Source of the DNA: Candidatus Portnoybacteria bacterium RBG_13_40_8
Lineage (GTDB): Bacteria > Patescibacteriota > Minisyncoccia > RBG-13-40-8-A
Length of the DNA: 64,000 nucleotides
Assembly: GCA_001819435.1 (NCBI GenBank)
Contig: MHMT01000003.1
Location: 5,797-69,796 of the forward strand
Direction of reading: 5' to 3'
The notes under the pieces are model-generated. The model was given only the letters and a program-made list of their open reading frames with translations. It had not been told where the DNA came from and made no database searches. Position numbers and translations under genes: made by a program. This document shows, piece by piece, positions 1,068-58,056 of the stretch (position 1 is the stretch's first letter; the number at the start of each line of letters is the position of its first letter).

Positions 1068-1106
1068 AAATTTACAGTATAATCAATAGTAATAATAACA
1101 AAATCA

Positions 1107-4728: not shown

Positions 4729-4782
4729 GGCATCGGGATTTGGTTAGAAATTAGAATTTAGAAATTAGAAATTTTATATATT

Positions 4783-7250: not shown

Positions 7251-7300
7251 AGAAGGAAAATAAAAAAAATTGCTATTTCGGTTTCTATGAATAACGGTTT
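7137..7300 (+). repeat. copy A of a duplicated gene-junction segment (MT 3' end + GT 5' start)
   Basis: About 105 bp near-identical to 9023-9127, then decaying similarity for ~60 bp more. Confidence 0.8.
7247..7294 (+). pseudogene. 15-codon remnant of a glycosyltransferase N-terminus (MKKENKKNCYFGFYE*)
   Basis: ATGA overlap with the methyltransferase stop. CYFGFYE matches the N-terminus (CYFGFYEPDF) of the intact GT at 12253. Confidence 0.5.
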
Positions 7301-7325
7301 GGGCTTGGTTCGTAGTTTTAAAATA

Positions 7326-7352
7326 AAAAGACAGCAATTACTGTCTTTTTAT
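7326..7352. terminator. bidirectional intrinsic terminator
   Basis: AAGACAG-caatta-CTGTCTT hairpin flanked by an A-run and a T-run, between convergent genes. Confidence 0.65.
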
Positions 7353-7387
7353 TGTTTGTCAGCGCTGAGCTTGATTATTGTTTTTTC

Positions 7388-8908
7388 TTAAGAAAATTTG
7401 AGAACCTTGTTTTTTAGGAATAAACGGAATCGATTCAGCTTTATTAATAGACGGAGTAAAAATCGACTAAAAATATTTTCCTCATAGCAGACCTGAAATA
7501 GTGGATAAAGTATTTCGGAGTAATGTAAGTAAAAATAGCTCATTTTCCTAATGCCATTCAATTCTTTTTGACTTATTTGAGGCATTTTTAAAATCGTTTT
7601 TGACATATCACTTCGCGCAGGTTTGATTTCTTCTTCAGATGCATAACCTTCTTTGACGGCCGTATCTCCCAATGGCGTGCCTCGATAAGGGAAAAACATT
7701 GAGATATTGGCAAGAGAAGGCCTTGCCTTTTTTAAGAGACGGAAGGTATCAAAAATCATCTCTTTCGTTTCGTAGGGCATCCCCATCATGTTAAGTGCTG
7801 CGACTCTGATTCCTTCTTCTTTCAGGATTCTTACCTTTTCGATATAGGTCTCGTCTGTATAGTCCCTTTTGAGTATGTTTTTCCTGAACTCGTAATTTCC
7901 CGATTCGAGAGCCATCGAGATGCTTGCACAGTTCATTTTCTTTAATAATTTAGCCTTTTCTCTAGTCACAGTATGGGGATGAGCATGGGAAGTAAATGGC
8001 ACATTTACTTCTTTTTGGTAAAGTTCTGACAGTCGGGCAAAATCATCAACATTTCTTAGGAGCATGTCTTCAGAAAATATCTTAAAAAATTTCAGGTCAT
8101 AGGTCTTTGTTAGAAATTTCATCTCTTCGACAAATCTTTCGGGAGAGAAAAATCTAACCCTTCCTATGGGGTATAGTTCATTAAGCACCGAGTTTGCGCA
8201 GTAAGGACATCGCCGTGGACACCCTCTGATATCTTGGACATCGCCACTTTTAATAATTTTTCCTTCAAAGGGTCGTAAAAACTGCCTTGGATCATAGATG
8301 GAATAGTCTAAAAATGGCAGTTTATTGATATCTTTTAGCGGTCTTACGGGGTTCTTGTGTACAATGTCATTCTTTTTTATCCATAAATTTTGGATGTCCG
8401 TTCGCGTGATATTACTACCTGAGATGGCATCGACAAATTCTAGGATTGCTTCTTCACCTTCGCCAACACAGAGTGCGTCAATACAATCTTCCGCAATTAC
8501 CTCATCTGGTAAAGTCGTTGCATGAATTCCCCCCATGATAATGGGAATGTCGTAATTATCCTTGGCAATCTTGAGAAAGTCGATAGTGTGAGAATACATG
8601 TCTGACATGCAGCTTGCAGCAATAAGATCTGGGCGCTCTTTTTTAATCAGGTTCAGAAAGACTGATTTGGCATTGATGCTTTTATCTCTCACAAGGTTGT
8701 ATTTTCCCCAATCAACCTTTTTATACTGCATGACCGAATCCGAGACTTCACCGTCTAGGGGAAAGCCGAGGTCCATGAATGTGGTGTCAAAATAGACCAC
8801 TTCGTGACCTTTCGACTTAAGGATAGCCGACAATAATGAGGTGGCAAGGGGCTTGGCACCTGCCGATGACCCCCCAATCGATGTGAGTAATACTTTTTTC
8901 ATAATCAT
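7388..8908 (-). CDS. B12-binding-domain radical SAM enzyme
   Basis: CPRRCPYC radical-SAM motif with an N-terminal B12-binding-like domain. Close paralog of the enzyme at 32822-34399. Confidence 0.75.
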   Translation of the reverse strand: MIMKKVLLTSIGGSSAGAKPLATSLLSAILKSKGHEVVYFDTTFMDLGFPLDGEVSDSVMQYKKVDWGKYNLVRDKSINAKSVFLNLIKKERPDLIAASCMSDMYSHTIDFLKIAKDNYDIPIIMGGIHATTLPDEVIAEDCIDALCVGEGEEAILEFVDAISGSNITRTDIQNLWIKKNDIVHKNPVRPLKDINKLPFLDYSIYDPRQFLRPFEGKIIKSGDVQDIRGCPRRCPYCANSVLNELYPIGRVRFFSPERFVEEMKFLTKTYDLKFFKIFSEDMLLRNVDDFARLSELYQKEVNVPFTSHAHPHTVTREKAKLLKKMNCASISMALESGNYEFRKNILKRDYTDETYIEKVRILKEEGIRVAALNMMGMPYETKEMIFDTFRLLKKARPSLANISMFFPYRGTPLGDTAVKEGYASEEEIKPARSDMSKTILKMPQISQKELNGIRKMSYFYLHYSEILYPLFQVCYEENIFSRFLLRLLIKLNRFRLFLKNKVLKFS

Positions 8909-9004
8909 AGATTAACAATTTATATTCAAAGGGTCAATATAATTGAAGCTTAAAAAGATAAAGGGTATAATAATTATTGAGTTTCAGAAGAAAGAAAAAA
9001 TAAC

Positions 9005-9136
9005 ATGAAAAAGCTATCTATTATCATTCCATTATTTTCTTTTTTGATTAAAAAGGAGTATGGAGATATAAATAAAACAAAATTAGAGAAAAATATAATG
9101 ACCTCAGTTTACTATTTAGTCGCTAAAAAGAGATGA
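9005..9136 (+). pseudogene. 43-codon remnant of a methyltransferase C-terminus
   Basis: IIPLFSFLIKKEYGDINKTKLEKNIMTSVYYLVAKKR is ~90% identical to the C-terminus of the methyltransferase at 6579-7250. Lies within the duplicated segment. Confidence 0.55.
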
Positions 9137-9205
9137 ATAAAAGCAAGGAAAATAAAAAAAATCAAAATCTGTTATTTTGGTTTCTACGAACCCGGGTTCT
9201 CTAGA
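9023..9205 (+). repeat. copy B of the duplicated gene-junction segment
   Basis: Direct repeat of 7137-7300. Together the two copies bracket the minus-strand radical-SAM gene at 7388-8908. Confidence 0.8.
9133..9204 (+). pseudogene. frameshifted remnant of a glycosyltransferase N-terminus
   Basis: ATGA overlap with the methyltransferase remnant. An alternate frame encodes KICYFGFYEPGFSRNEVYIKGLRENG, homologous to the N-terminus of the GT at 12253. Confidence 0.5.
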
Positions 9206-9268
9206 AACGAAGTATACATTAAGGGCTTGAGAGAAAATGGATAGGAAATATATAAAATAAATTTTTAT

Positions 9269-10651
9269 ATGAAAATTTTTATATTAAATCCACCGATTTA
9301 TTCTAAGAAAAAGTCAATAATGAACGTTAGGCCAAGACAACCGCTAAGTTTGGCTTATATTACTAGCTTACTTTTAAAAAAAAGCTACGAAGTTAATTTG
9401 TTTGACGCTAATGTCATGGGTTATAAAACGGACCGGACTATAAAAGAAATTGAAGATTATCATCCAGATATTTTAATTTTAACCTCAACCCCAATTGATA
9501 GGTGGGAATGCCCAAATTCTCATATAGATTCGATTTTCGAGATTATTAATAAAAGTCGGATAAATCCGACAATTTTAACTGGTTCCCATGGTTCATTGAC
9601 CCCTGATTGGATTTTTAAAAAATGTAGTGTTCAGTATATTGTTCGGTGCGAACCAGAAATGACGGTTTTAAATCTAATAGAAGCTCTGGTAAAAAAAGAA
9701 GACATTAAAAAGATTAGAGGGATTTCTTATAAGATTGGTAGTAAGGTCATTAACAATGAAGATGCTGCCCGGATAGAAAATTTAGATAATTTACCCTTGC
9801 CAGCTTACCATTTATTGCCAATGAATAAATACAGATACGGTTTTCCCGAACTGTCTCCGCCATTTACAATTATGTTAACTTCGCGAGGCTGTCCATTTAA
9901 TTGCATTTTTTGTTTGAAAGTAATGTCTAAAGGAAAATATATTACCAGAAGTTCGGAGAACGTCATCAAAGAAATAGAATACTTGATTGATAATTTCAAA
10001 ATTAAATCAATTTTCTTTCAGGACTGGGAATTTACAATTAATAAAGAGAGGGTAAAAAAAATTTGTGATTTGATTTTAAAGAAAAATTTAAGAATTATTT
10101 GGGGTTGTAATGCTCGGGCAAATGATTTATCATATGAATTAGTTGAAAAAATGAAGAAAGCTGGTTGCGTTAGAGTTAATATTGGATTTGAGTCGGGCTC
10201 GCAGAAGATTTTAGACAATATTAATAAAGGTATTAAAGTTGGGGACCTGGAGAATGCAGTGGAAATTTGCAGAAAAAATAATATTAATATTGGAATGTAT
10301 GCTATGTTAAATTTGCCTGGAGAAAACAAAGAAACGATAAAAGAAACCGTTGATTTTTTTGCCCAAAATAAGATTGAGTCAATGACACTAAATTTAGCAA
10401 TTCCTTATTTTGGAACTCCACTTTTTGAGAGATTAAAAACGGCTAATAAAAAAACCAATTTTAATTGGGACAATATTGAGGAATATGCCGGGAAAATAGA
10501 TGTCGAACAAAGCCCAAGGGCAGCCCGTTTATATTATCGGCATTTTAAATTTAAGAATAAATTTGGCTTTTTTTATTTTTTCCACCCAGGATTTTGTAAG
10601 TGGGCAATAAGATTTATAAAGAACAAAATTAAGAAATATATAAAAAAATAA
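9269..10651 (+). CDS. B12-binding-domain radical SAM enzyme
   Basis: GCPFNCIFC motif, IGFESGS motif, and an N-terminal B12-binding-like domain. Confidence 0.75.
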   Translation: MKIFILNPPIYSKKKSIMNVRPRQPLSLAYITSLLLKKSYEVNLFDANVMGYKTDRTIKEIEDYHPDILILTSTPIDRWECPNSHIDSIFEIINKSRINPTILTGSHGSLTPDWIFKKCSVQYIVRCEPEMTVLNLIEALVKKEDIKKIRGISYKIGSKVINNEDAARIENLDNLPLPAYHLLPMNKYRYGFPELSPPFTIMLTSRGCPFNCIFCLKVMSKGKYITRSSENVIKEIEYLIDNFKIKSIFFQDWEFTINKERVKKICDLILKKNLRIIWGCNARANDLSYELVEKMKKAGCVRVNIGFESGSQKILDNINKGIKVGDLENAVEICRKNNINIGMYAMLNLPGENKETIKETVDFFAQNKIESMTLNLAIPYFGTPLFERLKTANKKTNFNWDNIEEYAGKIDVEQSPRAARLYYRHFKFKNKFGFFYFFHPGFCKWAIRFIKNKIKKYIKK

Positions 10652-10660
10652 ATAGATAAC

Positions 10661-12106
10661 ATGATTGTTTTACTTCAAATCAATTATTCTAAATATCAGT
10701 CCGAGATAGATTTTCCTTTGGGGATTTTGTCTGTTGGAAGCGCCTTGAAAAAGGCAGGTTTTGAGGTAAAATTGTTTAATATTACTGAAAATAATATTAA
10801 TGAAACAGTTGATGAAATTATTACCTTATCCCCAGAATTTTTAGGTGTATCTGTAATGACTGGTATCCAAACTAAACATAGCGCTGAGTTTTGTCAGAAA
10901 ATAAAAAAGAAGAAAAATAATCTCACAATTGTTTGGGGGGGGATTCACCCATCACTGTTGCCAGAACAATGTTTGCAGGAAAGTTATATAGATTATGTTG
11001 TTATAGGAGAAGGGGAAATAACAATTATAGAATTTATCAGGAGATTAAGGAATGGCGATGGCTTTGATGATGTGGCTGGTTTGGGTCATAAAAAAAATGG
11101 AAAAGTCATAATTAACAGATCTCGAGACCTTATAGAGAATTTAGATAAATATAGATTAGATTTTAGCCTTATTGATGTTGAAAAGTATATCTTTAAACCA
11201 AGGGGCGCTAAGCGAACAATGGTCTATAAGGCGAGTAGGGGCTGTACTTTTAATTGCGCCTTTTGTTATAATAAGATTTTTAATAGGGGTCGTTGGCGAG
11301 CTTGGTCAGTTGATGCAGTGGTTGAAGATATTGATTTTTTAAAGAAAAATTACGGAGTGAACGCCATTCAATTTTATGACGACAACTTCTTCATTAATCA
11401 ACAGAGGGCCTTAGAGATCTTAGAGAGGGTTGATTTGCCAAGTCACGTAGAAATCAGGATAGATATGATTACTGACGACCTGGCTCAGAAGCTAAAGAAA
11501 TTAAAAGTTGACAAGCTTCTAATTGGTATAGAGTCAGGTAGCAATAGGATGTTGAAGTTGATTAATAAGGGCTATACAGTAGATAGGATTCAAAAAGGTA
11601 TAAAGATTTTGGCAAAATACGATCTTTACACCACTTATTCTACAATTGTGGGTTTGCCCACAGAAACCAAAGAAGAGTTTAATAAAACACTTGATTTAAT
11701 ATATTGGATTCGCAAAATACATCCGCGGTCCGGATTCAATTTGGGTACTTACTTGCCTTATCCTGGCTCTTTAATGTATCAGTTTGCTATTGAACAAGGG
11801 TTTAAGCCACCGCAAAGAACAGAGGACTGGGGAAGTATTGATAGATTTAGAAAAGATTTTTCATCTCCTTGGGTAGATAGTAAAAAAGTTTGGTGGATCA
11901 GGGAGTATTTAAAAATTTTTAATTATAAGATTGGTTTATTGAATAAATGGTTAGAATTCAGGATAAAAAGCAGATTTTTTAGTTTCCATTTGGATGCTTA
12001 TATCATTAAGCGTTTGGCGGGATTGGCCATTGAAGAAAAGGGGATTATTGGTAAGATTTTAAGGAAAATTCATTCTCTAATTAAAAAATTCAAATCAGGT
12101 CCATAA
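10661..12106 (+). CDS. B12-binding-domain radical SAM enzyme
   Basis: GCTFNCAFC motif, IGIESGS motif, and an N-terminal B12-like domain (VIGEGE). Confidence 0.75.
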   Translation: MIVLLQINYSKYQSEIDFPLGILSVGSALKKAGFEVKLFNITENNINETVDEIITLSPEFLGVSVMTGIQTKHSAEFCQKIKKKKNNLTIVWGGIHPSLLPEQCLQESYIDYVVIGEGEITIIEFIRRLRNGDGFDDVAGLGHKKNGKVIINRSRDLIENLDKYRLDFSLIDVEKYIFKPRGAKRTMVYKASRGCTFNCAFCYNKIFNRGRWRAWSVDAVVEDIDFLKKNYGVNAIQFYDDNFFINQQRALEILERVDLPSHVEIRIDMITDDLAQKLKKLKVDKLLIGIESGSNRMLKLINKGYTVDRIQKGIKILAKYDLYTTYSTIVGLPTETKEEFNKTLDLIYWIRKIHPRSGFNLGTYLPYPGSLMYQFAIEQGFKPPQRTEDWGSIDRFRKDFSSPWVDSKKVWWIREYLKIFNYKIGLLNKWLEFRIKSRFFSFHLDAYIIKRLAGLAIEEKGIIGKILRKIHSLIKKFKSGP

Positions 12107-12252
12107 AGACGTTCAAAAATACACTCAAATGATTAAAAAAGTTTTTTCGAGAGAAGTATTTTAGAAATATACCCACTTAATAAAAATTTTGAGCTATCCT
12201 TGATTTATGTTTTTAAAAAGCAGTAATAGAAATTTATAAAATAAATCATTAA

Positions 12253-13371
12253 ATGATAAATAAAGAAAACAATCCCAAAAAACTAACAGTTTGTTATTTT
12301 GGATTTTACGAACCTGACTTTTCCAGAAACCAGGTTTATATTGACGGATTAAAGAAAAACGGAGTCGAAGTAGTTGAATGTAATGACTTTTCTAAATCTA
12401 AATTTTTGAAATACCGGAATCTCTATCGCGAACACTGGAAAATTAGAAAAAAATATGACTTAATGATTGTAAGCCACATATGGAGAACTACAAATCTTTC
12501 AGACCACTTTGCTGTTCCTTTTGCGAAATTGATCTCTAGAAAAAAAATTATCCACAACGCAATGTGTTCGAACTATGAAGCCGCTATTTTATGTCGCGAG
12601 GTGGCAAAACAAGGTTCTTTTAGGGCAAAACTATACTGGATGGCCGATTATCTGGCTTGTCACTACGCCTCCCTGATTTTAGTCGAAACTGAAGAACAAA
12701 AAAAATTCTATATTAAGAATTTTAAAATCAATGAAAAAAAATGTATAAGAATGTGGACCGGAGCAAACGATAAAGATTTCTTTATTGAGCCAGTTAATAA
12801 AAACGAAAAATTTACAGTTGTACTTAGGGGTGGGCTTTTGCCAGAAACAGGCATCGAATACGTGCTTAAGGCTGCTAAAAAATTAGAAGACGAAGGTGTT
12901 AATTTTTTGATATTGGGCTGGGCAAAAACAGAAAAAATTGAAAAAAATATTGAAGAAATTATGAGAAACAAAGGCCCTAAAAATTTAAAATTTATTACCG
13001 AATATCTCCCACTTGAAAATTTAAGAAAAACCATGCTATCCCATCATGCTAGTTTGGGTCAATTTGGAAATCATGAAAGAATTGAAAGAACAATTCCCCA
13101 CCGAGCATTTGAAAGCCTGGCTCTCGGCTTACCATATATAACTGCTGAGGCGGCTGGAGTTAAAGAATTACTAACCAATAGAGTAAATTGTTTGTTTGTC
13201 AAACGAGCTAACCCCAACGATCTTGCTGAAAAAATACTAGAACTAAGGGATAGCCCAGAATTAAGAAAAAAAATAGCCGAAAACGGCTATAAATTGTATA
13301 AAGAAAAATTAACTCCCAAGGTTCTGGGAGAAGAATTATTGAGTATTTGTCATCGCCTTATTAAAAACTAA
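12253..13371 (+). CDS. glycosyltransferase (GT4-like C-terminal domain)
   Basis: ESLALGLPYITAEAAGVKELL and RKKIAENGY. Its N-terminus matches the two remnant fragments. Confidence 0.55.
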   Translation: MINKENNPKKLTVCYFGFYEPDFSRNQVYIDGLKKNGVEVVECNDFSKSKFLKYRNLYREHWKIRKKYDLMIVSHIWRTTNLSDHFAVPFAKLISRKKIIHNAMCSNYEAAILCREVAKQGSFRAKLYWMADYLACHYASLILVETEEQKKFYIKNFKINEKKCIRMWTGANDKDFFIEPVNKNEKFTVVLRGGLLPETGIEYVLKAAKKLEDEGVNFLILGWAKTEKIEKNIEEIMRNKGPKNLKFITEYLPLENLRKTMLSHHASLGQFGNHERIERTIPHRAFESLALGLPYITAEAAGVKELLTNRVNCLFVKRANPNDLAEKILELRDSPELRKKIAENGYKLYKEKLTPKVLGEELLSICHRLIKN

Positions 13372-40077: not shown

Positions 40078-42309
40078 ATGAATCCATCTTTAACCTATGT
40101 AAAAATACTCCGCTGGGGGATTTTTATTTCCCTATTTTTGCCGTTGGTTATTTTTTCCCAATATATTTCACCATTCCATTTTGGCAAAATGGTTGTTTTT
40201 CGGGTCATTGTGGAATTTCTGGCGGTTTTTTATATTCTTTTGATTATAGTTGATAGAAATTATCGTCCTAAGTGGACTTTTCTTTTAATCGCTTTTTCGG
40301 TTTTTACGGCCCTCTATTTTTTAACTGGCGTTATCGGAGTTAATTTTTATAACAGTTGGTGGGGTTCTCTCGAAAGGATGGGTGGTATTTTCAGTTTTCT
40401 GCATTTCTGGGTTTATTTTATTATTTTGACTAGCGTAATTAAAAATATAGAAGATTGGAATAAAATTTTGAAAATATCGGTTGGAGTTGGTTTTTTGTCT
40501 ATCTTATTTGCTTATGGTCAGCGCTTAAGACTGGGAGACTTTTTTGTTGGTTGGCAGCACGGAGAAAGGGTAATTGGCACAATTGGTAATCCGGCCCTTT
40601 TTGCCGGTTATCTTCTCTTTATTCTTTATTTGGCTCTTTTATTTTTATTGAAAAAAGAAACCAAGATACAGGAAAAAGGATTTTTTACGGCAGTGATTAT
40701 TTTGGGCATCCCGGTTTTATTGATGACCGCAGTAAGAGGGGCAATACTTTCTTTTCTGGGCTCTATTTTTCTCTTGGCCATATTTTTTATTTTTACCTTG
40801 AAGAATCGGAAGATTAAAATTTCTCTATTAATTGCGGTAATTATTTTTATAATTTTGACCGTCTTTATTTTATTGAACAAAGATCAGGCCTGGGTGAGAG
40901 GCGTTAGTTGGTTAAGCAGAATAACAGACATCTCTAAAGATACTTCTACCATTCAGACCAGATTATGGTCTTGGACAAGTGCAATTAATGGATGGAAGGA
41001 AAAACCAATCTTTGGTTGGGGCCCAGAAAATTTTATGTTTCTGCATATGAAATATTTTGATGCTCGTCACTTTACTGGTCTGGGCTCGGAGACGATCTGG
41101 GATCGGGCTCATAATATATTTTTGGAAATGCTGTCTACCGAGGGCGTGGCGGGTCTTATAAGTTATTTATCTATTTTTGGTATTGCTTTTTATTTTTTGA
41201 TTAAAAAGCTAAAAACAGGAGCCATTGATGGGTTGACTTTTGGAGTTTTATCGGCAGCCCTGATTGCTTACATCGGTCAGAATCTTTTTATTTTTGATAC
41301 TTTTGCTAATTATTTCTTATTCTTTTTGGTGTTGGGATATATTAATTTTTTGCTTTTTAAAAAGGATCAGGCCGAGATTCCTGTTTCGGGGCCCGCTCAA
41401 AGTCCTTCTCTTTTTTTAATATCCATCCTTTTAATATTGGTAGCCTTTATTGTTTATCAAACAAACATAAAGCCGGCTCGAGCTAATTTTGCCTGTACCC
41501 GGGCGATTATCGCTGGTCAGGGTGGCAATGCCCAAAGGGCATACGACAAATACGTAGAGGCCCTTAATTATAATACCCCTCAAGGAGCCTATGAAATAAG
41601 ACATAAATTAGCCACTTTTGCCATTCAGGTTTCAGAATCCCAAAGACAAAAGAATGGGGATTTTAATCCAGAGCTACTTCGCTACGCAATAAAAGAAACG
41701 GAGAAAAATATAGATAAGTATCCACTTGATACAACTCCCTATCTTTATGTCGGGAGAATGCATATTCTTCTCATCAATAAGGACTCCGGGGCTGGCAATA
41801 GAGCAGAAGAATATATTAACAAAGCCATTGCTCTTAATGATAAGAATCCCAGAATCTGGTATGAATTGGGACAGGCTCAAATGTCTGAAAAGAAATACCA
41901 AGAATCGTACGAGAGCTTTAAAAAGGCGCTTGAACTCAATCCCAGTGTTTCCCTGTCTTGGTGGTTTTTGGGGGTAGTTGCCCTTCAGGTCGGACATTAC
42001 GATGAGGCGGTTTACGACGTTGAAAAGGCGATAGCAATGGGTTATTCGGATTACAAGAACAGCATCGCGGATTTAATGCGTTTGGTAAATATTTATGAAA
42101 AAGTCGGAAATATCCCGAAAGTTACAGAATATTATCTTTTGGCAATAGCCGAACAGCCGGGAAATCCTCAATTTTACGCCTCTTTAGCGGCTGCCTATGC
42201 CAAAACGGGGGATTATAATAAGGCAAAAGAAACGGCTTTAAAAGCGGTGGAAATAGATCCTAAATTTAAAGAAGAAGCAGAAAAATTTATTAATTCCTTG
42301 CCGAAATAA
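40078..42309 (+). CDS. O-antigen ligase/Wzy_C-family membrane protein fused to a C-terminal TPR domain (candidate O-oligosaccharyltransferase or polymerase)
   Basis: About 12 TM helices. WSWTSAINGWKEKPIFGWGPENF is a Wzy_C motif. The last ~190 aa carry TPR-like repeats (AYAKTGDYNKAKETALKAVEIDP). Confidence 0.7.
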   Translation: MNPSLTYVKILRWGIFISLFLPLVIFSQYISPFHFGKMVVFRVIVEFLAVFYILLIIVDRNYRPKWTFLLIAFSVFTALYFLTGVIGVNFYNSWWGSLERMGGIFSFLHFWVYFIILTSVIKNIEDWNKILKISVGVGFLSILFAYGQRLRLGDFFVGWQHGERVIGTIGNPALFAGYLLFILYLALLFLLKKETKIQEKGFFTAVIILGIPVLLMTAVRGAILSFLGSIFLLAIFFIFTLKNRKIKISLLIAVIIFIILTVFILLNKDQAWVRGVSWLSRITDISKDTSTIQTRLWSWTSAINGWKEKPIFGWGPENFMFLHMKYFDARHFTGLGSETIWDRAHNIFLEMLSTEGVAGLISYLSIFGIAFYFLIKKLKTGAIDGLTFGVLSAALIAYIGQNLFIFDTFANYFLFFLVLGYINFLLFKKDQAEIPVSGPAQSPSLFLISILLILVAFIVYQTNIKPARANFACTRAIIAGQGGNAQRAYDKYVEALNYNTPQGAYEIRHKLATFAIQVSESQRQKNGDFNPELLRYAIKETEKNIDKYPLDTTPYLYVGRMHILLINKDSGAGNRAEEYINKAIALNDKNPRIWYELGQAQMSEKKYQESYESFKKALELNPSVSLSWWFLGVVALQVGHYDEAVYDVEKAIAMGYSDYKNSIADLMRLVNIYEKVGNIPKVTEYYLLAIAEQPGNPQFYASLAAAYAKTGDYNKAKETALKAVEIDPKFKEEAEKFINSLPK

Positions 42310-44997: not shown

Positions 44998-45777
44998 ATG
45001 TATCTTAAAAACATTGTGGCGATTACACCGGTTTGGAATGAGCCACTGGGATTAATTCAGAAATTTCTTAGTGGTATTAAAAGAGTCCGGAGCATTTTAG
45101 CCGAGAAAGAGATCGGTTTCCGACATTTTTTTCTTGATGATGGGGCGCTTCATTTGCCCGATGAGTGTTCGATTCTGGTTCGTCATAAAGAAAACCTGCG
45201 ACTCGCAAAGACTTTAGTGGATGGTTATGAGGCGGTACTGAATCTTAAATCGGTTCCCGATCTTGTTATTCGGTTGGATTGCCAGGAACATGATCCGGAG
45301 AAAATTCCTTTCGTTATTGATCACTTCTCGCATGCATCTCAGCTTCAAGCTCTTTTTCTTCCTGTATGGTACTGGGTCAAGGGCGAAGATAGGCCGTTGA
45401 TGAAAGATATTACCATGATGATTACAAAATTCATTTCCGGCATATCGCCAGTCAACAGACAGGCTGTGCTTGAAGTGTACAATCAGAAATTTCCCCTCGG
45501 ATACCAGGCGTTCAGGATCGCGGCACTTAGAAAGTTGATGAACCCACTAAAGAAAGGTCTCGTGCTTTTTCAGCAGAAATTTAACACTTCTGCTTCGTGG
45601 GGCTTGGATCTCTTGGTTATTCTTTTGGCGGCAAAAGAATATCCAGAGGGCGTTGATTTTATCTTTGGGGGCTGGTCAGAGCCATGGCAAGAGAATCGGT
45701 CTCCGGAAAAAATCGATGCTCAGCGCGTGAAAGCAGAGGCCATGGTAGAATTAGCAGAAGAATTAGATTATCAGTAA
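44998..45777 (+). CDS. hypothetical protein, GT2-like N-terminus (ITPVWNE..., FFLDDGA)
   Basis: Weak GT-A motifs only. GC (~42%) is clearly above the locus average. Confidence 0.3.
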   Translation: MYLKNIVAITPVWNEPLGLIQKFLSGIKRVRSILAEKEIGFRHFFLDDGALHLPDECSILVRHKENLRLAKTLVDGYEAVLNLKSVPDLVIRLDCQEHDPEKIPFVIDHFSHASQLQALFLPVWYWVKGEDRPLMKDITMMITKFISGISPVNRQAVLEVYNQKFPLGYQAFRIAALRKLMNPLKKGLVLFQQKFNTSASWGLDLLVILLAAKEYPEGVDFIFGGWSEPWQENRSPEKIDAQRVKAEAMVELAEELDYQ

Positions 45778-46146: not shown

Positions 46147-47955
46147 ATGATTTCTTTATCTAAAAAAGGAAAAATTTTTTTGACCCTGCTGATTTCGGGC
46201 GGGCTTTTTATTTCTTTATGTTCCTTCGCCTCGGCCTTTGAAGCGGGGGATAAAGACACTTTTTATATCGATCCTTTCTATGATACAAGCGGGAGAAATC
46301 AGGTATCGGCTACCCTGAAGAATATTTCCGAAAAAGTATATTTTTACATAGAAGACGAATATTGGAGCGCACTTTCAAGTAATGACCAAAATTCTTATCT
46401 TGTTTTGATCGATAACATTGCCAAAGAATTTGATAACACGATTTATTCTTCGCTTCATTATATTTTTGGTTCCGAGTGGAGTCCGGGCATTGATAATGAT
46501 GAAAGAATAACCATCCTTTTAACCGATATTAAGGCTACGGCCGGAGGATATTTCAATTCAAAAGATGAATTTACAAAAAGCGAAGAATCTACCTCTAACG
46601 AACGAGAAATGCTTTATATAAACGCCACCCAGATTAATAATCCTTTAATGAAAAGTTTCATTGCCCACGAGTTTCAACACCTGATAACCTGGAACGAAAA
46701 AGAAAGAACGCAAGGATTGTTGGACGATGTTTGGTTAAATGAGGTGAGAAGCGAATATGCTCCAACAGCTGCCGGATATGACAGCGTTTTTTCCGGTACA
46801 AACCTGGAAAGAAGGATAGGCGATTTTTTGGCTAATCCCTTCGATTCTTTGACCGAATGGAAGGGGGATAGGTTTGATTATCCTCCGGTTAATATCTTCG
46901 GCCACTATTTAGCCGAACAATTTGGTGAAGATATTTTTTCTTTAATGCTTAAAAATAATAAAGTCGGGATTTATAGCGTAGAACAGGCCATAAAAGACAA
47001 AGGATTCAATTTTAATTTTTCTCAAATTTTCAATAATTGGACGATTGCCAACTATTTGAATAATTCTTCTTTAAGCGATGGCCGTTACGGCTATGAGAAC
47101 CCCTATCTTAAGGGCGCGATAAATGTTTCGCCCATAAATTATAGCATCGTTTCTACCAGCGTTATTAGTATTGCGCAAAACATAAAAGATTGGGCTCCTT
47201 ACTGGTATAGATTTATCAACAAACAAGATGCCGGAACGATTGCCGGAGATTTGGAAATAGAATTTGAAGGAGGCGTTGAAAGGGGAAATTTTAATGTTTT
47301 TTATATTATTGAATATTTTTCAAGGCCAACCCTAATTAACTCTCTTGTCCTATCTAATCAGAAAGGAGTTTTAAAAATTCCGGATTTCAAGAATGATATT
47401 GATTCGGTAACGATTATTGTTTCTAATCAGTTTAAAAAAAGCGGTTTTAACAGCAACGGAGAATCAAATAATTTTGTATTGTCTGTGGCCACCACTATTT
47501 TTGGAGAAGAGGTGCCGGAACCTCAGCCTCAACCAGAACCAAATCCCAATAAATTAGCCCGTCCAGAAGATTATGGTCTTAAAGAAGGAGATCTAATCAG
47601 GGCAGAAGGAGATTTTGACATTTTTATCATTAATCAGTACGGCTACAAGCGATTATTCCTTAATCCGACTATTTTCAATATGTATGGACATCTTACGGGC
47701 GGCTGGAAAGCGGTGAAAACCGTTAGCCCATCAACTCGAGACGCTTTTGTAACTTCCGGTCTTTACCGTTACGTAGATTCGCCCAAAGTCTATTTTCTGG
47801 AAGTCACCGGCGGAGATACGGGAATGCTTCACTGGGTTAATATAACCGCGAATAGCTTTCTGACCCAAGGCGGTAAATCCGAATCGATATTTACTGTCAA
47901 TAAATCCGAATTCAATTGGTATCCCAAGGGAGTAGATAAAAATTCACTGCAATGA
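46147..47955 (+). CDS. secreted zinc metallopeptidase-like protein (gluzincin HExxH...NExxSE)
   Basis: N-terminal signal peptide (LTLLISGGLFISLCSFASA). IAHEFQHL with NEVRSE 24 aa downstream. PEPQPQPEPNP linker precedes a C-terminal domain. Confidence 0.5.
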   Translation: MISLSKKGKIFLTLLISGGLFISLCSFASAFEAGDKDTFYIDPFYDTSGRNQVSATLKNISEKVYFYIEDEYWSALSSNDQNSYLVLIDNIAKEFDNTIYSSLHYIFGSEWSPGIDNDERITILLTDIKATAGGYFNSKDEFTKSEESTSNEREMLYINATQINNPLMKSFIAHEFQHLITWNEKERTQGLLDDVWLNEVRSEYAPTAAGYDSVFSGTNLERRIGDFLANPFDSLTEWKGDRFDYPPVNIFGHYLAEQFGEDIFSLMLKNNKVGIYSVEQAIKDKGFNFNFSQIFNNWTIANYLNNSSLSDGRYGYENPYLKGAINVSPINYSIVSTSVISIAQNIKDWAPYWYRFINKQDAGTIAGDLEIEFEGGVERGNFNVFYIIEYFSRPTLINSLVLSNQKGVLKIPDFKNDIDSVTIIVSNQFKKSGFNSNGESNNFVLSVATTIFGEEVPEPQPQPEPNPNKLARPEDYGLKEGDLIRAEGDFDIFIINQYGYKRLFLNPTIFNMYGHLTGGWKAVKTVSPSTRDAFVTSGLYRYVDSPKVYFLEVTGGDTGMLHWVNITANSFLTQGGKSESIFTVNKSEFNWYPKGVDKNSLQ

Positions 47956-53048: not shown

Positions 53049-53938
53049 ATATCTCATTTATAAAATATCATAAGATTCATTATTTTATTGTTGGGGCATT
53101 AATTATCGCCAGCGTAATTTGTTTGGTTGTTTTTGGTTTAAATTTGGGAATTGATTTTCTTGGCGGGAGTATTTCGGAGGTTAATTTCGAAAATAGACCG
53201 GCCAATACCGTAATTCAGGAAAAATTAAATAGTTTAAATTTAGGCGAAATTACCGTTCAGCCAACCGGCGAAAGAGGAGTCATTTTAAGATTAAAAAATA
53301 TCGACGAAAACACTCATCAGGAAATTCTTTTTAAATTAGGCGAAATTTCAAAAATTGAGGAAAAAAGATTTGAAAGTATCGGACCGACGGTGGGTAAAGA
53401 GTTAAGAGAAAAAACCATAATTTTAATAACCGTTTCACTAATTGCCCTGCTTATTTATATTGCCATTGCTTTTAGAAAGTTGAAATGGCCAATTTCAAGT
53501 TGGCAGTATGGCGTTGTATCGGTTATAACTTTATTTATAGATATTCTTATACCGTTTTTGGTTCTGGTAATTTTGGGCAAATTTTACAATGTTCAGTTCA
53601 ATATCCCGATTATCTCTGCCCTATTAACGATTTTGGGTTACACCATTAACGATAAAGTAATTATTTTTGACAGGGTTAGGGAAAATATTCTCAGAACCAG
53701 GTCTGATAATTTTTCTGATACCGTTAATTCCAGTTTAAATCAAATACTCGGCCGTTCCCTCGGTACGGGCCTTTGTACGCTTTTGGTATTATTTTCCATA
53801 TTTTTCCTCGGTGGAGAAACTTTAAAATATTTTTCTCTGACACTGATTATCGGGGTAATTGTCGGCACTTATACTTCTTTATTCATTGCCAGTTCTTTAT
53901 TGGTAACCTGGAATAGATTTAAAACAAAAGGTGCTTGA
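53039..53938 (+). CDS. secF: protein-export membrane protein SecF
   Basis: LGIDFLGGSISEV motif, 6 TM helices, overlaps secD. Confidence 0.9.
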   Translation: MVMNISFIKYHKIHYFIVGALIIASVICLVVFGLNLGIDFLGGSISEVNFENRPANTVIQEKLNSLNLGEITVQPTGERGVILRLKNIDENTHQEILFKLGEISKIEEKRFESIGPTVGKELREKTIILITVSLIALLIYIAIAFRKLKWPISSWQYGVVSVITLFIDILIPFLVLVILGKFYNVQFNIPIISALLTILGYTINDKVIIFDRVRENILRTRSDNFSDTVNSSLNQILGRSLGTGLCTLLVLFSIFFLGGETLKYFSLTLIIGVIVGTYTSLFIASSLLVTWNRFKTKGA

Positions 53939-54006
53939 CATTGTTTTTTTAGTATGATATATTAATTTATTGATAAAAATTAAATTCAATTTAACAGGGT
54001 AAAATT

Positions 54007-55059
54007 ATGGCAAAATCAACATCCACAAAAAATATTAATAAAACCTTATCTACCAGAACAGAAAAGGCATTATTGTTTTTGACAAATCCGCGAGTCAGAG
54101 ACGTAATTGAAAGAAGGTTTGGAATTAAAAACGGTAAAATTGAAACTCTTGAGGCAATTGGTCATGGTTATGGTATTACCCGAGAACGGGTCCGTCAAAT
54201 CGAAGAAAATGGCCTAAGAGCTTTAAAATCAGAAAGAGTTTTACCGTTGTTTGAGCCAGTTTTTGCATATTTGAATGATTTCTTTAATGAACACGGTAAT
54301 TTGGCCGGTGAAGAATATTTGTATTGTACTTTGACCAATACAAATGAATTTCATCCTCTGAGAGGCCAGCTTTATTTGGTTTTAACTATTGGTGACCCCT
54401 ATCAAAGAATAATTAATGATGAACGTTTTAACCCTTACTGGATAACCGATAAATCAGTCAGAAATGTAGCCGGGAAAGTGGTTGACTTTTTAATCGACCA
54501 TTTCACCAAGCAGAATAAAGTTTTTCACGAATCAGATATTTTAGATGTTTTGTCTCAAAAGCATTCGAATCTGTCACAAAAGATGCTTTGCGTTATATTG
54601 GATATTTCCAAAGAGATAAATAAAAATATCTTTGGTCAACTGGGCTTAACCTATTGGCCGGAAATTTCTCCTCAAGGAGTAAAAGACAGGGCTTATTTGA
54701 TATTAAAGAAAGAAGGGAAGCCACTTCATTTCACCCTGATAACCGAATTGATAAATAAAAGTGATTTTGGCGATAGATTGGCCCATACCCAGACCGTTCA
54801 TAATGAATTAATAAAAAGCCCCAAATTTGTCTTAACTGGTCGAGGTACTTACGCTTTGGCTGAATGGGGTTATGAGCCGGGAACTGTAGAAGAGACAATA
54901 GAGAAAATTTTAAAAACCAATAAAAGACCGATGACCAAAGAAGAAATATTGGAAGCGGTCTTATTGCAGCGTCAAGTTAAGCCAACTACGATATTGCTTA
55001 ACCTTCAGAGATCTCCCAAGACCAAGAAATTAGGTGATGGGAAATATGCTTTGGTTTAA
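54007..55059 (+). CDS. sigma-70 region-4 (HTH) domain protein with a ~270-aa uncharacterised C-terminal extension
   Basis: RVRDVIERRFGIKNGKIETLEAIGHGYGITRERVRQIEENGLRALK matches sigma70 region 4.2. No regions 2 or 3 are present. Confidence 0.5.
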   Translation: MAKSTSTKNINKTLSTRTEKALLFLTNPRVRDVIERRFGIKNGKIETLEAIGHGYGITRERVRQIEENGLRALKSERVLPLFEPVFAYLNDFFNEHGNLAGEEYLYCTLTNTNEFHPLRGQLYLVLTIGDPYQRIINDERFNPYWITDKSVRNVAGKVVDFLIDHFTKQNKVFHESDILDVLSQKHSNLSQKMLCVILDISKEINKNIFGQLGLTYWPEISPQGVKDRAYLILKKEGKPLHFTLITELINKSDFGDRLAHTQTVHNELIKSPKFVLTGRGTYALAEWGYEPGTVEETIEKILKTNKRPMTKEEILEAVLLQRQVKPTTILLNLQRSPKTKKLGDGKYALV

Positions 55060-55101
55060 TAATTAACATTAACAATCATATTTTTAGATAACGGTTATAA
55101 T

Positions 55102-56388
55102 ATGACTGGCGGATTGCCTGACATTTTCAATATTTATAAGGTAATACTCCTGGGCTATTGGTGGATTTGGCTACCGGTGGCTCTTTTTTTTATTTTAAGA
55201 ATGATGTGGCTGGATTATATCCGTTCCGAATATTTGAAAAGCATCGAGTGGACACTTTTGGAGATAAGCTTTCCAAGAGAGGCGATAAAAAGTCCCAAGG
55301 CGATGGAGCAGATTTTTAGCGGATTGCATGTCACAGAGAGAAAACTTAAATTTAAGGACAAATATATAAAAGGTGAACTTCCAACATGGTTTAGCATTGA
55401 AATAGTGGGCGATGGTGGAAGAATCAGAATATTATTAAGAACACCAGAGAAATATAGAAATTTAGTAGAGTCCCAAATCTACGCTCAGTATCCGGATGCC
55501 GAAATTTCGGAAACCCAGGATTATGTTAATGATTTACCATTCGGTATTCCCAATAAAGATTACGATATCTGGGGAACTGAGTTGATTTTAACTCAACCCG
55601 ATGCTTATCCAATCCGAACCTATCCTTTCTTTTTTCAGGAAAAAGAAATTGAAGAAAGAACCGATCCGATGGCTGGTCTTTTTGAGTTTTTAAGCAGTCT
55701 GAACTTCCAAGAACATCTTTGGCTGCAAATTTTGATTAGCCCTGTTGACGATGAATGGAAAAAAGAAGCAGAAAAGGTGGTTGGAAAAATTCTTGGCAAG
55801 GAAGTAAAAAGTTCCAAGAAGAGCGGGTCATTGATTATTAAAGAAGTTAGCGGTTGGCTTGACGCATTTTTAAAAGGAGTTACTGATTTTTTCACCGGAC
55901 CATCGACCAAGGCCGAGACCAAAGAAGAGAAAAAGGTAGAAAATTTAGCTGCTTATTTAAGCCCCGGTCAGAAAGAAGTGGTTTCGGCCATTGAAGCCAA
56001 TATTGCCAAATTAGGATTTAGAACAATGATTAGAGAAATGTATTGGGCCCACAAAGATGTTTTTTCCAAAGACAAGACAGCAGCGGTTGGCGGATTTTTT
56101 AAACAATTTAACACCCAAAACCTTAATGGTTTTAAGCCGAATAAATTGGTCACTCCGGGGCGGAGCAAAATATTCAAAAAACGTCGAGAACCGGGTCAAA
56201 AAAGATATATCTTAAGGTTATATAAAAACAGGCAATTTATTTTCCATAGACCCAGAAGAGGGTTCGTATTCAATACCGAAGAACTGGCTACTGTTTTTCA
56301 TATTCCTCTCAAATACGTTAAAGTGGAAAGAATTCCCAGAATTGAGGCCAAGAAAGGCGGACCACCCACCAGTTTACCCACTATTTAA
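55102..56388 (+). CDS. hypothetical membrane-anchored protein
   Basis: N-terminal TM segment (ILLGYWWIWLPVALFFIL). Immediately upstream of the coupling-ATPase gene. No family assignable. Confidence 0.3.
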   Translation: MTGGLPDIFNIYKVILLGYWWIWLPVALFFILRMMWLDYIRSEYLKSIEWTLLEISFPREAIKSPKAMEQIFSGLHVTERKLKFKDKYIKGELPTWFSIEIVGDGGRIRILLRTPEKYRNLVESQIYAQYPDAEISETQDYVNDLPFGIPNKDYDIWGTELILTQPDAYPIRTYPFFFQEKEIEERTDPMAGLFEFLSSLNFQEHLWLQILISPVDDEWKKEAEKVVGKILGKEVKSSKKSGSLIIKEVSGWLDAFLKGVTDFFTGPSTKAETKEEKKVENLAAYLSPGQKEVVSAIEANIAKLGFRTMIREMYWAHKDVFSKDKTAAVGGFFKQFNTQNLNGFKPNKLVTPGRSKIFKKRREPGQKRYILRLYKNRQFIFHRPRRGFVFNTEELATVFHIPLKYVKVERIPRIEAKKGGPPTSLPTI

Positions 56389-56398
56389 TCAATGAATT

Positions 56399-57988
56399 AT
56401 GGACAATAACGATATAACAATTTTTGCCGAGACAAATTTCCGCAACAGGAAAACAAAATTTGGCATTAAAACCGATGATCGCCGACGCCACGTGTATATT
56501 GTGGGAAAAACCGGAACTGGCAAGACCGCCCTCTTGGAGAATATGGCTGTTCAAGATATTCAAAAAGGATATGGTGTGGCGGTTGTTGATCCCCACGGCG
56601 AATTTGCCGAGAAAATGCTTGATTTCGTTCCGTCTAATCGGGTAAATGATGTGGTTTATATTAATCCGGCAGATATCGAACATCCAATCAGTTTTAATAT
56701 TATGGAAAAAGTCGGACCGGAATATCGCCATTTGGTCGCTTCCGGATTAGTCGGTGTTTTCAAAAAAATCTGGTTTGATATGTGGAGCTCCAGAATGGAA
56801 TATATAACCTATAATACTGTTTTAGCTCTTTTGGAATATCCCGGCAGTACATTAATGGGCATTAACAGAATGTTAGCTGACAAGGATTATCGTCAAAGAG
56901 TAGTCGAAAAAATTACCGACCCGACTGTTAAGGGATTTTGGAATAACGAGTTCGCCAAATACCCGGATAGATTCAGGGAAGAAGCAGTGGCGCCAATCCA
57001 GAATAAAATTGGCCAGTTTATTTCCAGTCCTTTAATCAGAAATATTATTGGCCAAGTTAAGTCCTCTATAGATATGAGAAAAATAATAGATGAAGGCAAG
57101 ATTCTGATAGTTAATCTTTCGAAAGGAAGAATAGGGGAGGATGCCAGTAATCTTTTGGGTGCTTTGGTTATAACCAGACTGCAATTAGCCGCCATGACCA
57201 GAGTTGATGTTCCGGAAGAAGAGAGAAGAGATTTCTATCTTTATGTTGATGAATTTCAGAACTTTGCCACTGAAGCTTTTGCCAACATTCTGTCCGAGGC
57301 CAGAAAATACCATCTCTGCTTGATTTTGACTCATCAATATATTGCCCAGCTTGACCAAATGACTGATAAGGGAAAAAGCACCAAGGTGAGAGACGCAGTT
57401 TTTGGCAACGTTGGAACGTTAATTACTTTTCGTGTTGGCGCATCCGATGCCGAATTCCTGGAAAAAGAGTTTGTACCGGAATTTACGATTGACGATTTGG
57501 TTAATTTGGATAAGTATAATATTTATTTGAAATTAATGATTGATGGAGCGGCTTCTCGGGCATTCAGCGCAACCACACTGGCGCCATTTCCCAAACTGGA
57601 AAAGTCATATCGGGATAAAATTATTAAAGCCTCCAGAGAGCACTACAGTGTGCCCAAGAAAGATATTGAAGAAAAGCTGATTAAGTGGAGTGAGTCGGTC
57701 CAACAGGAAGAAGACAAGAAGAAAAAATATGATGCCACTTGTTCTCAGTGCGGAAAAAAGACAAAAGTCGCTTTTCAGCCAGACGGAGTAAGGCCGGTTT
57801 ATTGTCCGGATTGTTTAAGAAAAACAAGAGAGGTGGTAACCAAGCCCGCAACAGAAGCCAAAAAAGAAACGATTTCTTTGGAAGAGGCAATAAAGCAATC
57901 CCCCCAATCTTTTAAAAAGATCAAAAAAGAACCCGATTTAGAGGAAGTCCGTAAAGCAATTGAAGAGGCAATGAAAGAAAAAGAGTAG
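56399..57988 (+). CDS. VirD4/TraD-like (type IV secretion coupling protein family, DUF87-like) P-loop ATPase with a C-terminal zinc ribbon
   Basis: Walker A GKTGTGKT, Walker B YLYVDEFQNF, and C-terminal CSQCGKK...YCPDCLRK. Confidence 0.55.
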   Translation: MDNNDITIFAETNFRNRKTKFGIKTDDRRRHVYIVGKTGTGKTALLENMAVQDIQKGYGVAVVDPHGEFAEKMLDFVPSNRVNDVVYINPADIEHPISFNIMEKVGPEYRHLVASGLVGVFKKIWFDMWSSRMEYITYNTVLALLEYPGSTLMGINRMLADKDYRQRVVEKITDPTVKGFWNNEFAKYPDRFREEAVAPIQNKIGQFISSPLIRNIIGQVKSSIDMRKIIDEGKILIVNLSKGRIGEDASNLLGALVITRLQLAAMTRVDVPEEERRDFYLYVDEFQNFATEAFANILSEARKYHLCLILTHQYIAQLDQMTDKGKSTKVRDAVFGNVGTLITFRVGASDAEFLEKEFVPEFTIDDLVNLDKYNIYLKLMIDGAASRAFSATTLAPFPKLEKSYRDKIIKASREHYSVPKKDIEEKLIKWSESVQQEEDKKKKYDATCSQCGKKTKVAFQPDGVRPVYCPDCLRKTREVVTKPATEAKKETISLEEAIKQSPQSFKKIKKEPDLEEVRKAIEEAMKEKE

Positions 57989-58023: not shown

Positions 58024-58056
58024 ATTGCTATTGAATTTTCAGTAGCAATTTTTTTA
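58024..58056 (+). terminator. intrinsic terminator
   Basis: ATTGCTA-ttgaattttcag-TAGCAAT followed by TTTTTTT. Confidence 0.55.

Follow-up and report, generated by a model that had tools for sequence, protein, structure and literature searches.

What does a VirD4-type coupling ATPase do in a bacterium that encodes it apart from any type IV secretion system (T4SS) and without a relaxase? A 2025 survey counted 5,713 VirD4-type homologues in 2,918 Patescibacteria genomes, only 148 of them near virB4; nearly all of these thousands of genes lie far from a T4SS and without relaxases, and the survey considered that such t4cp homologues were perhaps "exapted for other functions", DNA uptake not being stated there (PMC12102498). 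The locus analyzed here raises the same question. In a window of 64,000 nucleotides from Candidatus Portnoybacteria bacterium RBG_13_40_8 (contig MHMT01000003.1; "the window" is this whole stretch), three head-to-tail open reading frames (ORFs) on the plus strand, here called genes A, B and C, were confirmed at the coordinates given in the table below, with A 100% identical to A2V69_01635 and C 100% identical to A2V69_01645. Judged by sequence, B and C are the two pieces of a split coupling ATPase of the type associated with MOB_C relaxases, with the membrane helix on the N-terminal piece in this version from the Candidate Phyla Radiation (CPR). A is the constant third partner in Patescibacteria, in place of the relaxase of the related mobile systems. 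The explanation that we favor, with confidence about evenly divided between it and everything else, is that A, B and C encode a split motor resembling a type IV coupling protein (T4CP), which would serve membrane-anchored nucleic-acid translocation with A as a DNA-binding adaptor or regulator. The anatomy of the three proteins, as described below, we consider very probably correct.

The relationship between B and C is clearest in single-chain proteins that contain both. On the profile phrog_5156 (824 positions), B matches positions 65-307 (1.4e-12) and C positions 398-821 (8.7e-64), and on gp27.4 of phage SPO1 (906 aa) B aligns at residues 70-362 and C at 419-793 (BLASTP 2e-25). The B profile also aligns with residues 54-313 of an 833-aa "DUF87 protein" of pBM69 from Bacillus methanolicus (hhalign 97.6%, E 2.9e-12), where an ATPase follows, and an 812-aa T4CP of an Embleya plasmid has the same layout of a B-like part and then an ATPase, with a weaker match. 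The order of a DUF8128-like N-terminal domain followed by a VirD4-like ATPase is found in B and C as two adjacent genes. Both plasmid proteins sit in a monoderm conjugation cluster directly beside a Replic_Relax (PF13814) protein, in the company of PrgI or conjugal-transfer proteins, an NlpC/P60 hydrolase and a VirB4-like ATPase distinct from the fused protein. The Embleya T4CP lies between the VirB4-like ATPase and Replic_Relax, and the pBM69 pair comes after a primase gene and before conjugal-transfer genes. In SPO1, gp27.4 is followed by gp27.3, which is also a Replic_Relax protein. PF13814 is the MOB_C relaxase family (PMC5357655), and a 2012 paper gave the name "DNA translocation operon" to the phage version, in which a MobC-type relaxase is accompanied by a coupling ATPase with no membrane helix in its N-domain (PMC3357382). 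It is because B-like and C-like parts are fused in one protein beside a MOB_C relaxase, both in conjugative plasmids of Bacillota (Bacillus) and Actinomycetota and in SPO1-like phages, that we read B plus C as a split coupling ATPase. As the plasmid clusters encode a VirB4 in addition to the fused protein, the latter appears to fill the coupling-protein role there. In SPO1 (L086, 2774-8284), gp27.4 and the MOB_C-like gp27.3 belong to a plus-strand block with the "partition protein" gp27.9, and the opposite-strand block beside it holds sigma gene 28.

Overall, the A-B-C system has the same two modules in the same order as the single-chain ATPases associated with MOB_C (those of pBM69, Embleya and SPO1, and orf201 of 0305phi8-36), and the junction motif ...EELAxxxHxP is common to both. 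It differs from them in that the modules are encoded by two genes, with a membrane helix on the N-terminal one, and in that the adjacent gene is not a relaxase or T4SS gene but one for a protein with sigma region 4 and a HARE-HTH domain. Moreover, the locus is chromosomal core rather than mobile, and C is only 24-32% identical to the phage and plasmid ATPases. No Replic_Relax gene was found beside B and C: A has no PF13814 match and the gene after C is lysS.

C itself has most of the features expected of a coupling protein. It matches TrwB_AAD_bind over residues 24-347 (E 1.6e-14, 54 bits against a cutoff of 20.5), exceeds the cutoffs of T4SS-DNA_transf (22.2 bits, cutoff 20.1) and TraG-D_C (26, cutoff 22), also matches DUF87 and the CD1115-type VirD4-like model (E 2e-11), and has TrwB as its best sequence match in the PDB. 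With a P-loop domain, Walker A and B motifs and T4CP profiles above their curated thresholds, C was correctly placed by an earlier sequence-only reading of this DNA as an ATPase of the T4SS coupling/DUF87 kind, and the hidden Markov model searches, in which TrwB_AAD_bind, DUF87 and Sigma70_r4 were all matched within the locus, do not put it in an unrelated AAA+ family. Like VirD4, TrwB and TraD, C combines the Walker motifs with a nucleotide-binding domain bearing an all-alpha insertion and a TraG-D_C region; unlike them, it has no transmembrane domain, its VirB4-N-like module is supplied in trans, and it carries a zinc ribbon. Hydropathy analysis found no transmembrane segment in C, and hence not the N-terminal one that T4CPs have in the same chain. 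Its scores lie far under the cutoffs of named T4CP equivalogs (TraD_Ftype, SXT_TraD, CD1115, CedD and others; for example 49.5 versus 366, 43.3 versus 250 and 50 versus 600), and neither a relaxase gene nor T4SS (virB4) genes accompany it in the scanned ORFs of the window or in the displayed flanks of the related loci.

The C-terminal ribbon noticed by the sequence-only reading is present in the window copy; it is not constant, being found in about half of the orthologues, and we rejected it as a defining feature of the protein. In the window it is followed by a Lys/Glu-rich tail, and the tails of the orthologues are long, disordered, rich in P, Q and R and unalignable. Commoner than the ribbon is a motif a few residues from the C-terminus, with the consensus (V/I)(D/N)xxxL(R/K)xxhxE(S/A)h, which occurs in at least 46 of 71 orthologues (in the window copy V replaces L). 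A second motif, (I/V/L)SLx(E/D)A(I/L/F)(K/R), precedes it in 14 of the 71 (window region 57872-57973, residues 492-525). Both look like candidate docking peptides, and by analogy with the TraD tail, which docks TraM, the tail of C may dock an accessory DNA-binding protein. The closest relative of C outside the CPR in the plasmid collection, on Sulfitobacter mediterraneus plasmid NZ_CP081110.1 (L087, 6983-8170), is a 395-aa stand-alone ATPase (41% identity, E 4e-94) with no A-like or B-like neighbor, located among transposases; it may reflect horizontal transfer of the CPR-type ATPase core.

B had been described from the sequence as a membrane-anchored unknown. The anchoring holds: a single helix is predicted near the N-terminus, 74 of 79 orthologues have a hydrophobic stretch at that end, and the remainder of the window protein is soluble. 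The protein is no longer without a family, as its homologues place it in DUF8128 and it appears to be the detached N-terminal half of a coupling ATPase. Precomputed PF26449 annotation is present on all 120 B homologues among the matches listed, including one that is 92% identical, and the orthologue in locus L084 is labelled DUF8128, which gives PF26449 its name; B itself had no match in our Pfam scan, whose model set held no PF26449. The DUF8128 profile recovers 2952 clusters at 50% identity (E <= 1e-3), or 967 at E <= 1e-30. No relatives were found among IMG/VR viral contigs with the B profile, and a literature search for "DUF8128" found no paper.

The structural model of B, built from 42 sequences, is of moderate quality (predicted local distance difference test, pLDDT, 72.6; predicted template-modelling score 0.71), and its alpha/beta domain, which ends in a conserved EELAT(I/V)FH(I/V)P motif, is predicted to have the fold of the N-terminal domain of VirB4/TrwK. 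Foldseek places 13 TrwK chains on top (E 4e-5 to 5e-4), and the VirB4 N-domain fold was found by two methods. B lacks a P-loop, and its matches include no further P-loop ATPases, from which we infer that the match is to the non-ATPase N-terminal domain of VirB4. On this model B resembles the non-ATPase part of TrwK, and the layout of B plus C, an N-domain and an ATPase, would mirror that of VirB4. Unlike in VirB4, there is no sequence-level similarity of B to the VirB4 N-domain families and no VirB4 ATPase-family match in C: CagE_TrbE_VirB, TraC_F_IV, AAA_10 and P-loop_TraG are absent from the Pfam matches of both proteins. A sequence search of B against PDB chains returned nothing, and the B profile shows no sequence similarity to the VirB4-like protein of the Embleya cluster, so that the link to VirB4 is one of fold. 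TrsD, a stand-alone VirB4-N-terminal-like protein abundant in Patescibacteria, belongs to the same comparison with VirB4 and TrwK. After VirB4, the best fold matches of B are EccE3 and EccE5, the membrane subunit accompanying the FtsK-like EccC in type VII secretion, which hints at a fold common to membrane partners of FtsK/HerA-type secretion ATPases; the resemblance is at the level of fold only, with no sequence similarity and no other type VII secretion genes.

A is predicted, from its sequence and structural model, to be a DNA-binding and possibly RNA polymerase (RNAP)-binding protein. Its N-terminus is a bona fide sigma-70 region 4, and the sequence-only reading of a region 4 without regions 2 and 3 is borne out: Pfam Sigma70_r4 is matched at residues 27-74 (E 3e-11, 43 bits, cutoff 24.1), with no Pfam match to region 2 or 3. 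All PDB and NCBIfam sequence matches of A are to region 4 of primary-type sigmas, the NCBIfam ones spanning only the last ~70 profile positions and lying far under their cutoffs, and this part of A is 35% identical to region 4 of Taq SigA. The stretch T58-R-E-R-V-R-Q64 is invariant across 40 orthologues and presumably corresponds to T583 to Q589 of sigma-70, which read the -35 hexamer in the established structures of sigma-4 on -35 DNA. A also matches Pfam HARE-HTH (E 2e-9, 38 bits, cutoff 25.9), the domain found in the delta N-domain. Structure prediction from a 40-sequence alignment gave a model with pLDDT 92, in which the sigma-4 module is followed by four winged helices (residues ~79-146, 150-214, 225-284, the HARE-HTH, and 294-349). 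No enzyme fold or catalytic domain is present; the model consists of five modules of helix-turn-helix (HTH) type only.

Several assignments of A were considered and rejected. Lacking sigma regions 1-3, A cannot serve as a sigma factor, and it was excluded from the sigma-70 family as having region 4 only, with no region 2. It was likewise rejected as the RNAP delta subunit (RpoE), the label that Joint Genome Institute annotation gives to its homologues: TIGR04567 scores 24.7 bits against a cutoff of 42, the HARE-HTH is internal, and A has three further winged helices and no acidic delta tail. A third candidate, a degenerate relaxase, was dropped because the model has only HTH and winged-helix modules; A has neither a PF13814 match nor profile similarity to the MOB_C relaxase of pBM69. 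The layout of A recurs on Abditibacteriota plasmid pIAD-21 (AP024153.1; L091, 26-6403), where a 568-aa "RpoD" is collinear with A from sigma-4 to HARE-HTH and winged helix (BLASTP 8e-17). Behind it come genes for a methylase fusion of the Eco57I/MmeI type, a protein with DUF4007 and a small kinase-like AAA_33 protein, and this setting of the A architecture is of a defence type.

The association of the three genes is widespread and regular. A scan of a single genome for each GTDB species found B relatives in at least 570 species, and we examined the 80 closest loci (L001-L080), which belong to the classes Paceibacteria and ABY1, plus one further lineage. All 80 are from Patescibacteria (Portnoy-, Azam-, Yanofsky-, Wolfe-, Harrison- and Magasanikbacteria and others), and one, L033, is labelled Nanoarchaeota yet holds the same bacterial operon. 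In all 75 loci where tblastn with the window proteins found the three genes, they are collinear on one strand in the order A-B-C, and the conserved co-occurrence on which the sequence-only reading had staked its proposal is thus present; three of the incomplete loci are explained by contig ends. The intergenic distances are short: between A and B the median is 30 nt, and between B and C, where overlaps of 4 nt are frequent, it is 14 nt. In 66 loci secF is found no more than 800 nt upstream of A, 8 loci have A-B-C without secDF, and the downstream neighbor is quick to change. In a second CPR lineage, whose C is ~66% identical, the order is secD-metK-secF-A-B-C-pgk; there (L081, L083, L084 and L085) metK, for S-adenosylmethionine synthetase, overlaps both secD and secF, and one such contig is labelled Humimicrobiaceae at NCBI, probably through a binning or taxonomy error. 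Across 62 complete loci, median identities are 54% for SecD, 44% for SecF, 40% for A, 42% for B and 61% for C, with C outscoring SecD in 48 of them.

On the 5' side of the operon in the window lie secA, a Nudix gene, a VanX-like peptidase gene, secD and secF, and on the 3' side, after lysS, an HD-domain gene, serS and ftsQ. The sequence-only reading had seen no conjugation system nearby, and indeed no T4SS, relaxase, integrase or competence gene is present among the scanned ORFs (339-13371 and 38630-63965; the ORFs at 13-38 kb were not part of the scan). GC content is even, and around the operon a repeat search returned only short chance-level repeats and no att-like or inverted-repeat boundaries. 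The best explanation is that A-B-C is a chromosomal, vertically inherited Patescibacteria operon.

This operon seems to be transcribed on its own. A sigma-70-type promoter-like site, the best of a 6.9-kb scan, overlaps the end of secF 44 nt upstream of A. For each gene we took the highest-scoring -35/-10 match within 150 nt upstream and counted the loci in which it reached at least 10/12. For A, 49 of 77 related loci qualified; 37 of these have a perfect TTGACA, and the spacer is almost always 17 nt. The corresponding counts were 17 of 58 for secD, 1 of 66 for secF, 8 of 78 for B and 3 of 77 for C, and random windows qualified in 4% of cases. A conserved near-consensus promoter before A, few before B or C and a terminator-like hairpin after C together indicate an autonomous operon. 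As the perfect TTGACA precedes the gene for a sigma-4 protein whose predicted -35-reading residues are intact, A might bind its own promoter.

Features of the A-B-C locus and of the related pBM69 locus; positions are those of the window except in the last row.
Feature	Location in protein	Position	Strand	Size	Remarks
Gene A		54007..55059	+	350 aa	Sigma region 4 and four predicted winged-helix domains
Gene B		55102..56388	+	428 aa	DUF8128 (PF26449) by its homologues; putative N-terminal module of split coupling ATPase
Gene C		56399..57988	+	529 aa	VirD4/TrwB-type (FtsK-HerA superfamily) ATPase
Sigma-70-type promoter-like site, TTGACA-17 nt-TATATT with TG extension		53935..53963	+		11/12 match
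Sigma-70 region 4 (4.1 + 4.2 HTH), primary-sigma type	A residues 9-76	54031..54234	+
HARE-HTH winged helix	A residues 225-287	54679..54867	+
Predicted single transmembrane helix VILLGYWWIWLPVALFFIL	B residues 14-32	55141..55197	+		Hydropathy; helix in model
Alpha/beta domain, predicted VirB4 N-terminal-domain-like fold	B residues ~48-402	55243..56307	+
Walker A GKTGTGKT	C residues 36-43	56504..56527	+		In 70 of 71 complete orthologues
Walker B LYVDEF	C residues 281-286	57239..57256	+		Aligned to TrwB Walker B region
Zinc ribbon CxxC-x17-CxxC	C residues 448-472	57740..57814	+		zf_Tbcl_2 E 7e-14; TIGR04272 E 1.4e-13
C-terminal amphipathic motif DLEEVRKAIEEAM	C residues 513-525	57935..57973	+		Candidate docking peptide
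Terminator-like hairpin, 11 pairs, loop of 4, then T7		58024..58056	+		36 nt past C stop codon
pBM69 locus (L089)		1-9740			Fused coupling ATPase and MOB_C relaxase pair

How might such an operon work? In the mechanism that we propose, B would tether C at the cytoplasmic face of the membrane, supplying both the helix and the VirB4-N-domain-like module. In the inner-membrane complex of R388, VirB4 touches VirB3 and VirB8 through its N-domain; by analogy, B may attach C to further components of the inner membrane, for example those of the monoderm-type T4SS of Patescibacteria. C, presumably as a hexameric ring, would use ATP to thread nucleic acid, most likely DNA; we take it to translocate DNA because its plasmid and phage relatives are thought to do so beside relaxases. 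A would bind DNA and present it to the motor, like the gamma domain of FtsK or the TraM-type accessory proteins of TraD, possibly contacting the motor through the conserved C-terminal peptide of C, as the TraD tail contacts TraM. Alternatively, or additionally, A may control the operon's own TTGACA promoter. The hexamer, DNA as the substrate, the direction of transport and the contact between A and C are what we infer, and DNA uptake, as suggested by the sequence-only reading, is a hypothesis. Pairing a motor of this superfamily with HTH or winged-helix DNA recognition has parallels in FtsK/SpoIIIE with its gamma domain and in the winged-helix partners of HerA/FtsK motors (DndG, BrxA/DUF4007), and multi-winged-helix or sigma-HTH modules recurrently accompany HerA/FtsK pumps (PMC10853773, PMC12839542). 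Unlike in those systems, the recognition module here is a separate sigma-4 protein, and the alpha and gamma domains of FtsK are missing, as is a nuclease effector.

A number of observations weigh against a split DNA-translocating motor or narrow its reach. The sample is confined to the 80 loci closest to the query, in Paceibacteria and ABY1. Two of them, L021 and L078, have B and no C within ~4 kb downstream; A and B are present in both (L021, 3740-7655; L078, 7170-11695), with an ORF-free gap of 880 nt after B in L021, and the missing C could be the result of gene loss, relocation or chimeric assembly. The zinc ribbon occurs in only 36 of the 71 C orthologues. For B, the Foldseek template-modelling scores against TrwK are low (~0.35), the model is of moderate confidence only, and VirB4 N-domain sequence models are not matched. 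A is tied to B and C by synteny and analogy, and in small CPR genomes synteny can persist without physical interaction. T4CPs, moreover, transport proteins as well as DNA. Finally, a t4cp homologue of Southlakia epibionticum, which may or may not belong to an A-B-C operon, was reported as non-essential (PMC12102498), and the Southlakia transposon-sequencing paper mentions the coupling protein only as unrecognisable in the T4SS cluster.

The alternative that survives best, which we hold to be possible though doubtful, separates A from the motor. A would be only a transcription factor, either an RNAP-associated protein of a sigma-4/delta-like kind or the operon's autoregulator, and would compete against the housekeeping sigma factor for the beta-flap or for the -35 box TTGACA; B-C would deliver proteins, not DNA, to the T4SS of Patescibacteria. 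Association with RNAP is known for sigma region 4 as well as for HARE-HTH, the homologues carry the delta-subunit label, and the perfect TTGACA upstream of A goes together with invariant -35-contacting residues. On the other hand, five conserved HTH modules are more than an autoregulator needs, and A falls below the delta-subunit cutoff and lacks the acidic tail of delta. The protein-substrate part can draw on the relaxase-less T4SS of Southlakia, which has been suggested to export proteins (PMC10633639), but all the characterized relatives with fused B-C-type proteins adjoin relaxases and are thus DNA systems.

A bolder version of the motor that we favor, and one that we think unlikely, would be a machine found only in Patescibacteria that translocates DNA under sequence guidance and independently of a relaxase. 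In it, the sigma-4 and winged helices of A would recognize duplex DNA at -35-like TTGACA sequences, perhaps also modified or host DNA via HARE-HTH, and hand it to the split ATPase, which with a relaxase-less T4SS or another channel would import, or export, DNA.

It is less likely still that B-C is a housekeeping DNA pump for segregation or division, like FtsK/SpoIIIE, with A as its sequence-reading loader. The core-gene context (secA, secDF, tRNA synthetases and ftsQ), the conservation of C beyond SecD and the ATPase superfamily shared with FtsK would all fit such a pump, and A could act like the winged helix of FtsK gamma. However, the best matches of C are T4CP families and not FtsK_SpoIIIE, C has neither the alpha nor the gamma domain of FtsK, and the Southlakia t4cp homologue was reported to be dispensable (PMC12102498).

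Very improbable, in our judgment, is an anti-invader module of the "HerA/FtsK capture" type, in which A would sense foreign or modified DNA via HARE-HTH and B-C would pump or block DNA at the membrane. Defence themes that combine HerA/FtsK with winged helices have been published (PMC10853773, PMC12839542), the A-like protein of the Abditibacteriota plasmid stands beside an Eco57I-type methylase and DUF4007, and PADLOC matches C to mad8 (2e-17), HerA and DndH and A to MzaA. These matches, however, span only generic cores, the ATPase in C and sigma-4 in A (MzaA, 50 bits against a cutoff of 800), and neither protein gave a full-length match to components of the anti-phage systems (MADS mad8, MZA MzaA, DndH), whose partner genes are likewise absent nearby. 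The operon also has no nuclease or other effector, and its fixed syntenic place beside secDF in hundreds of species, under purifying selection stronger than that on SecD, is the opposite of what defence islands show. That the three genes are the decaying remnant of an integrated conjugative element or prophage is scarcely credible: the closest fused relatives do lie on plasmids and phages, but the scanned ORFs are free of genes for an integrase, a relaxase or a T4SS, repeats do not flank the operon, GC is uniform, the motifs are intact in 70 of 71 orthologues, the locus is kept across classes, and IMG/VR viral contigs hold no B relatives.

Elsewhere in the window, 339-13371 is a dense glycan-modification island with three group-1 glycosyltransferases, two methyltransferases, an asparagine synthase and four radical-SAM enzymes, three of them with B12-binding domains, a concentration unusual for a reduced genome; glycan-biosynthesis genes continue at 38-45 kb. 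The ORF at 40078-42309 (743 aa) fuses an O-antigen-ligase (Wzy_C) domain to C-terminal TPR repeats, and two ORFs just 5' of secA, at 44998-45777 (259 aa) and 46147-47955 (602 aa), have no Pfam match at E <= 1e-5. An Rfam scan of 50-60 kb found no RNA families.

Taken together, the observations of the sequence-only reading are confirmed and its interpretation is partly supported. The ATPase family, the fused relatives and the orphan t4cp genes of Patescibacteria, counted in 2025, are already known. We did not find in the literature the split architecture, DUF8128 as a VirB4-N-like membrane half, a constant sigma-4/HARE-HTH partner replacing the relaxase, or the conserved promoter and secDF-adjacent core position; nor did a search find any paper combining HARE-HTH with Patescibacteria. 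In Paceibacteria and ABY1 at least, the orphan coupling ATPase belongs with two other genes to a tightly conserved operon that has a promoter of its own, which gives these orphan coupling proteins a genetic context and constant partners, namely a motor-completing DUF8128 subunit and a sigma-4/HARE-HTH protein. A function can now be proposed for a Pfam domain of unknown function with ~3,000 clusters at 50% identity, and the pairing of a VirB4-like N-domain with a T4CP-like ATPase bears on the evolution of coupling proteins from VirB4. Should DNA be the substrate, the operon might be relevant to the way in which CPR bacteria gain host nucleic acids, and the sequence-guided machine, if real, would be a route by which nucleotide-auxotrophic epibionts acquire them.

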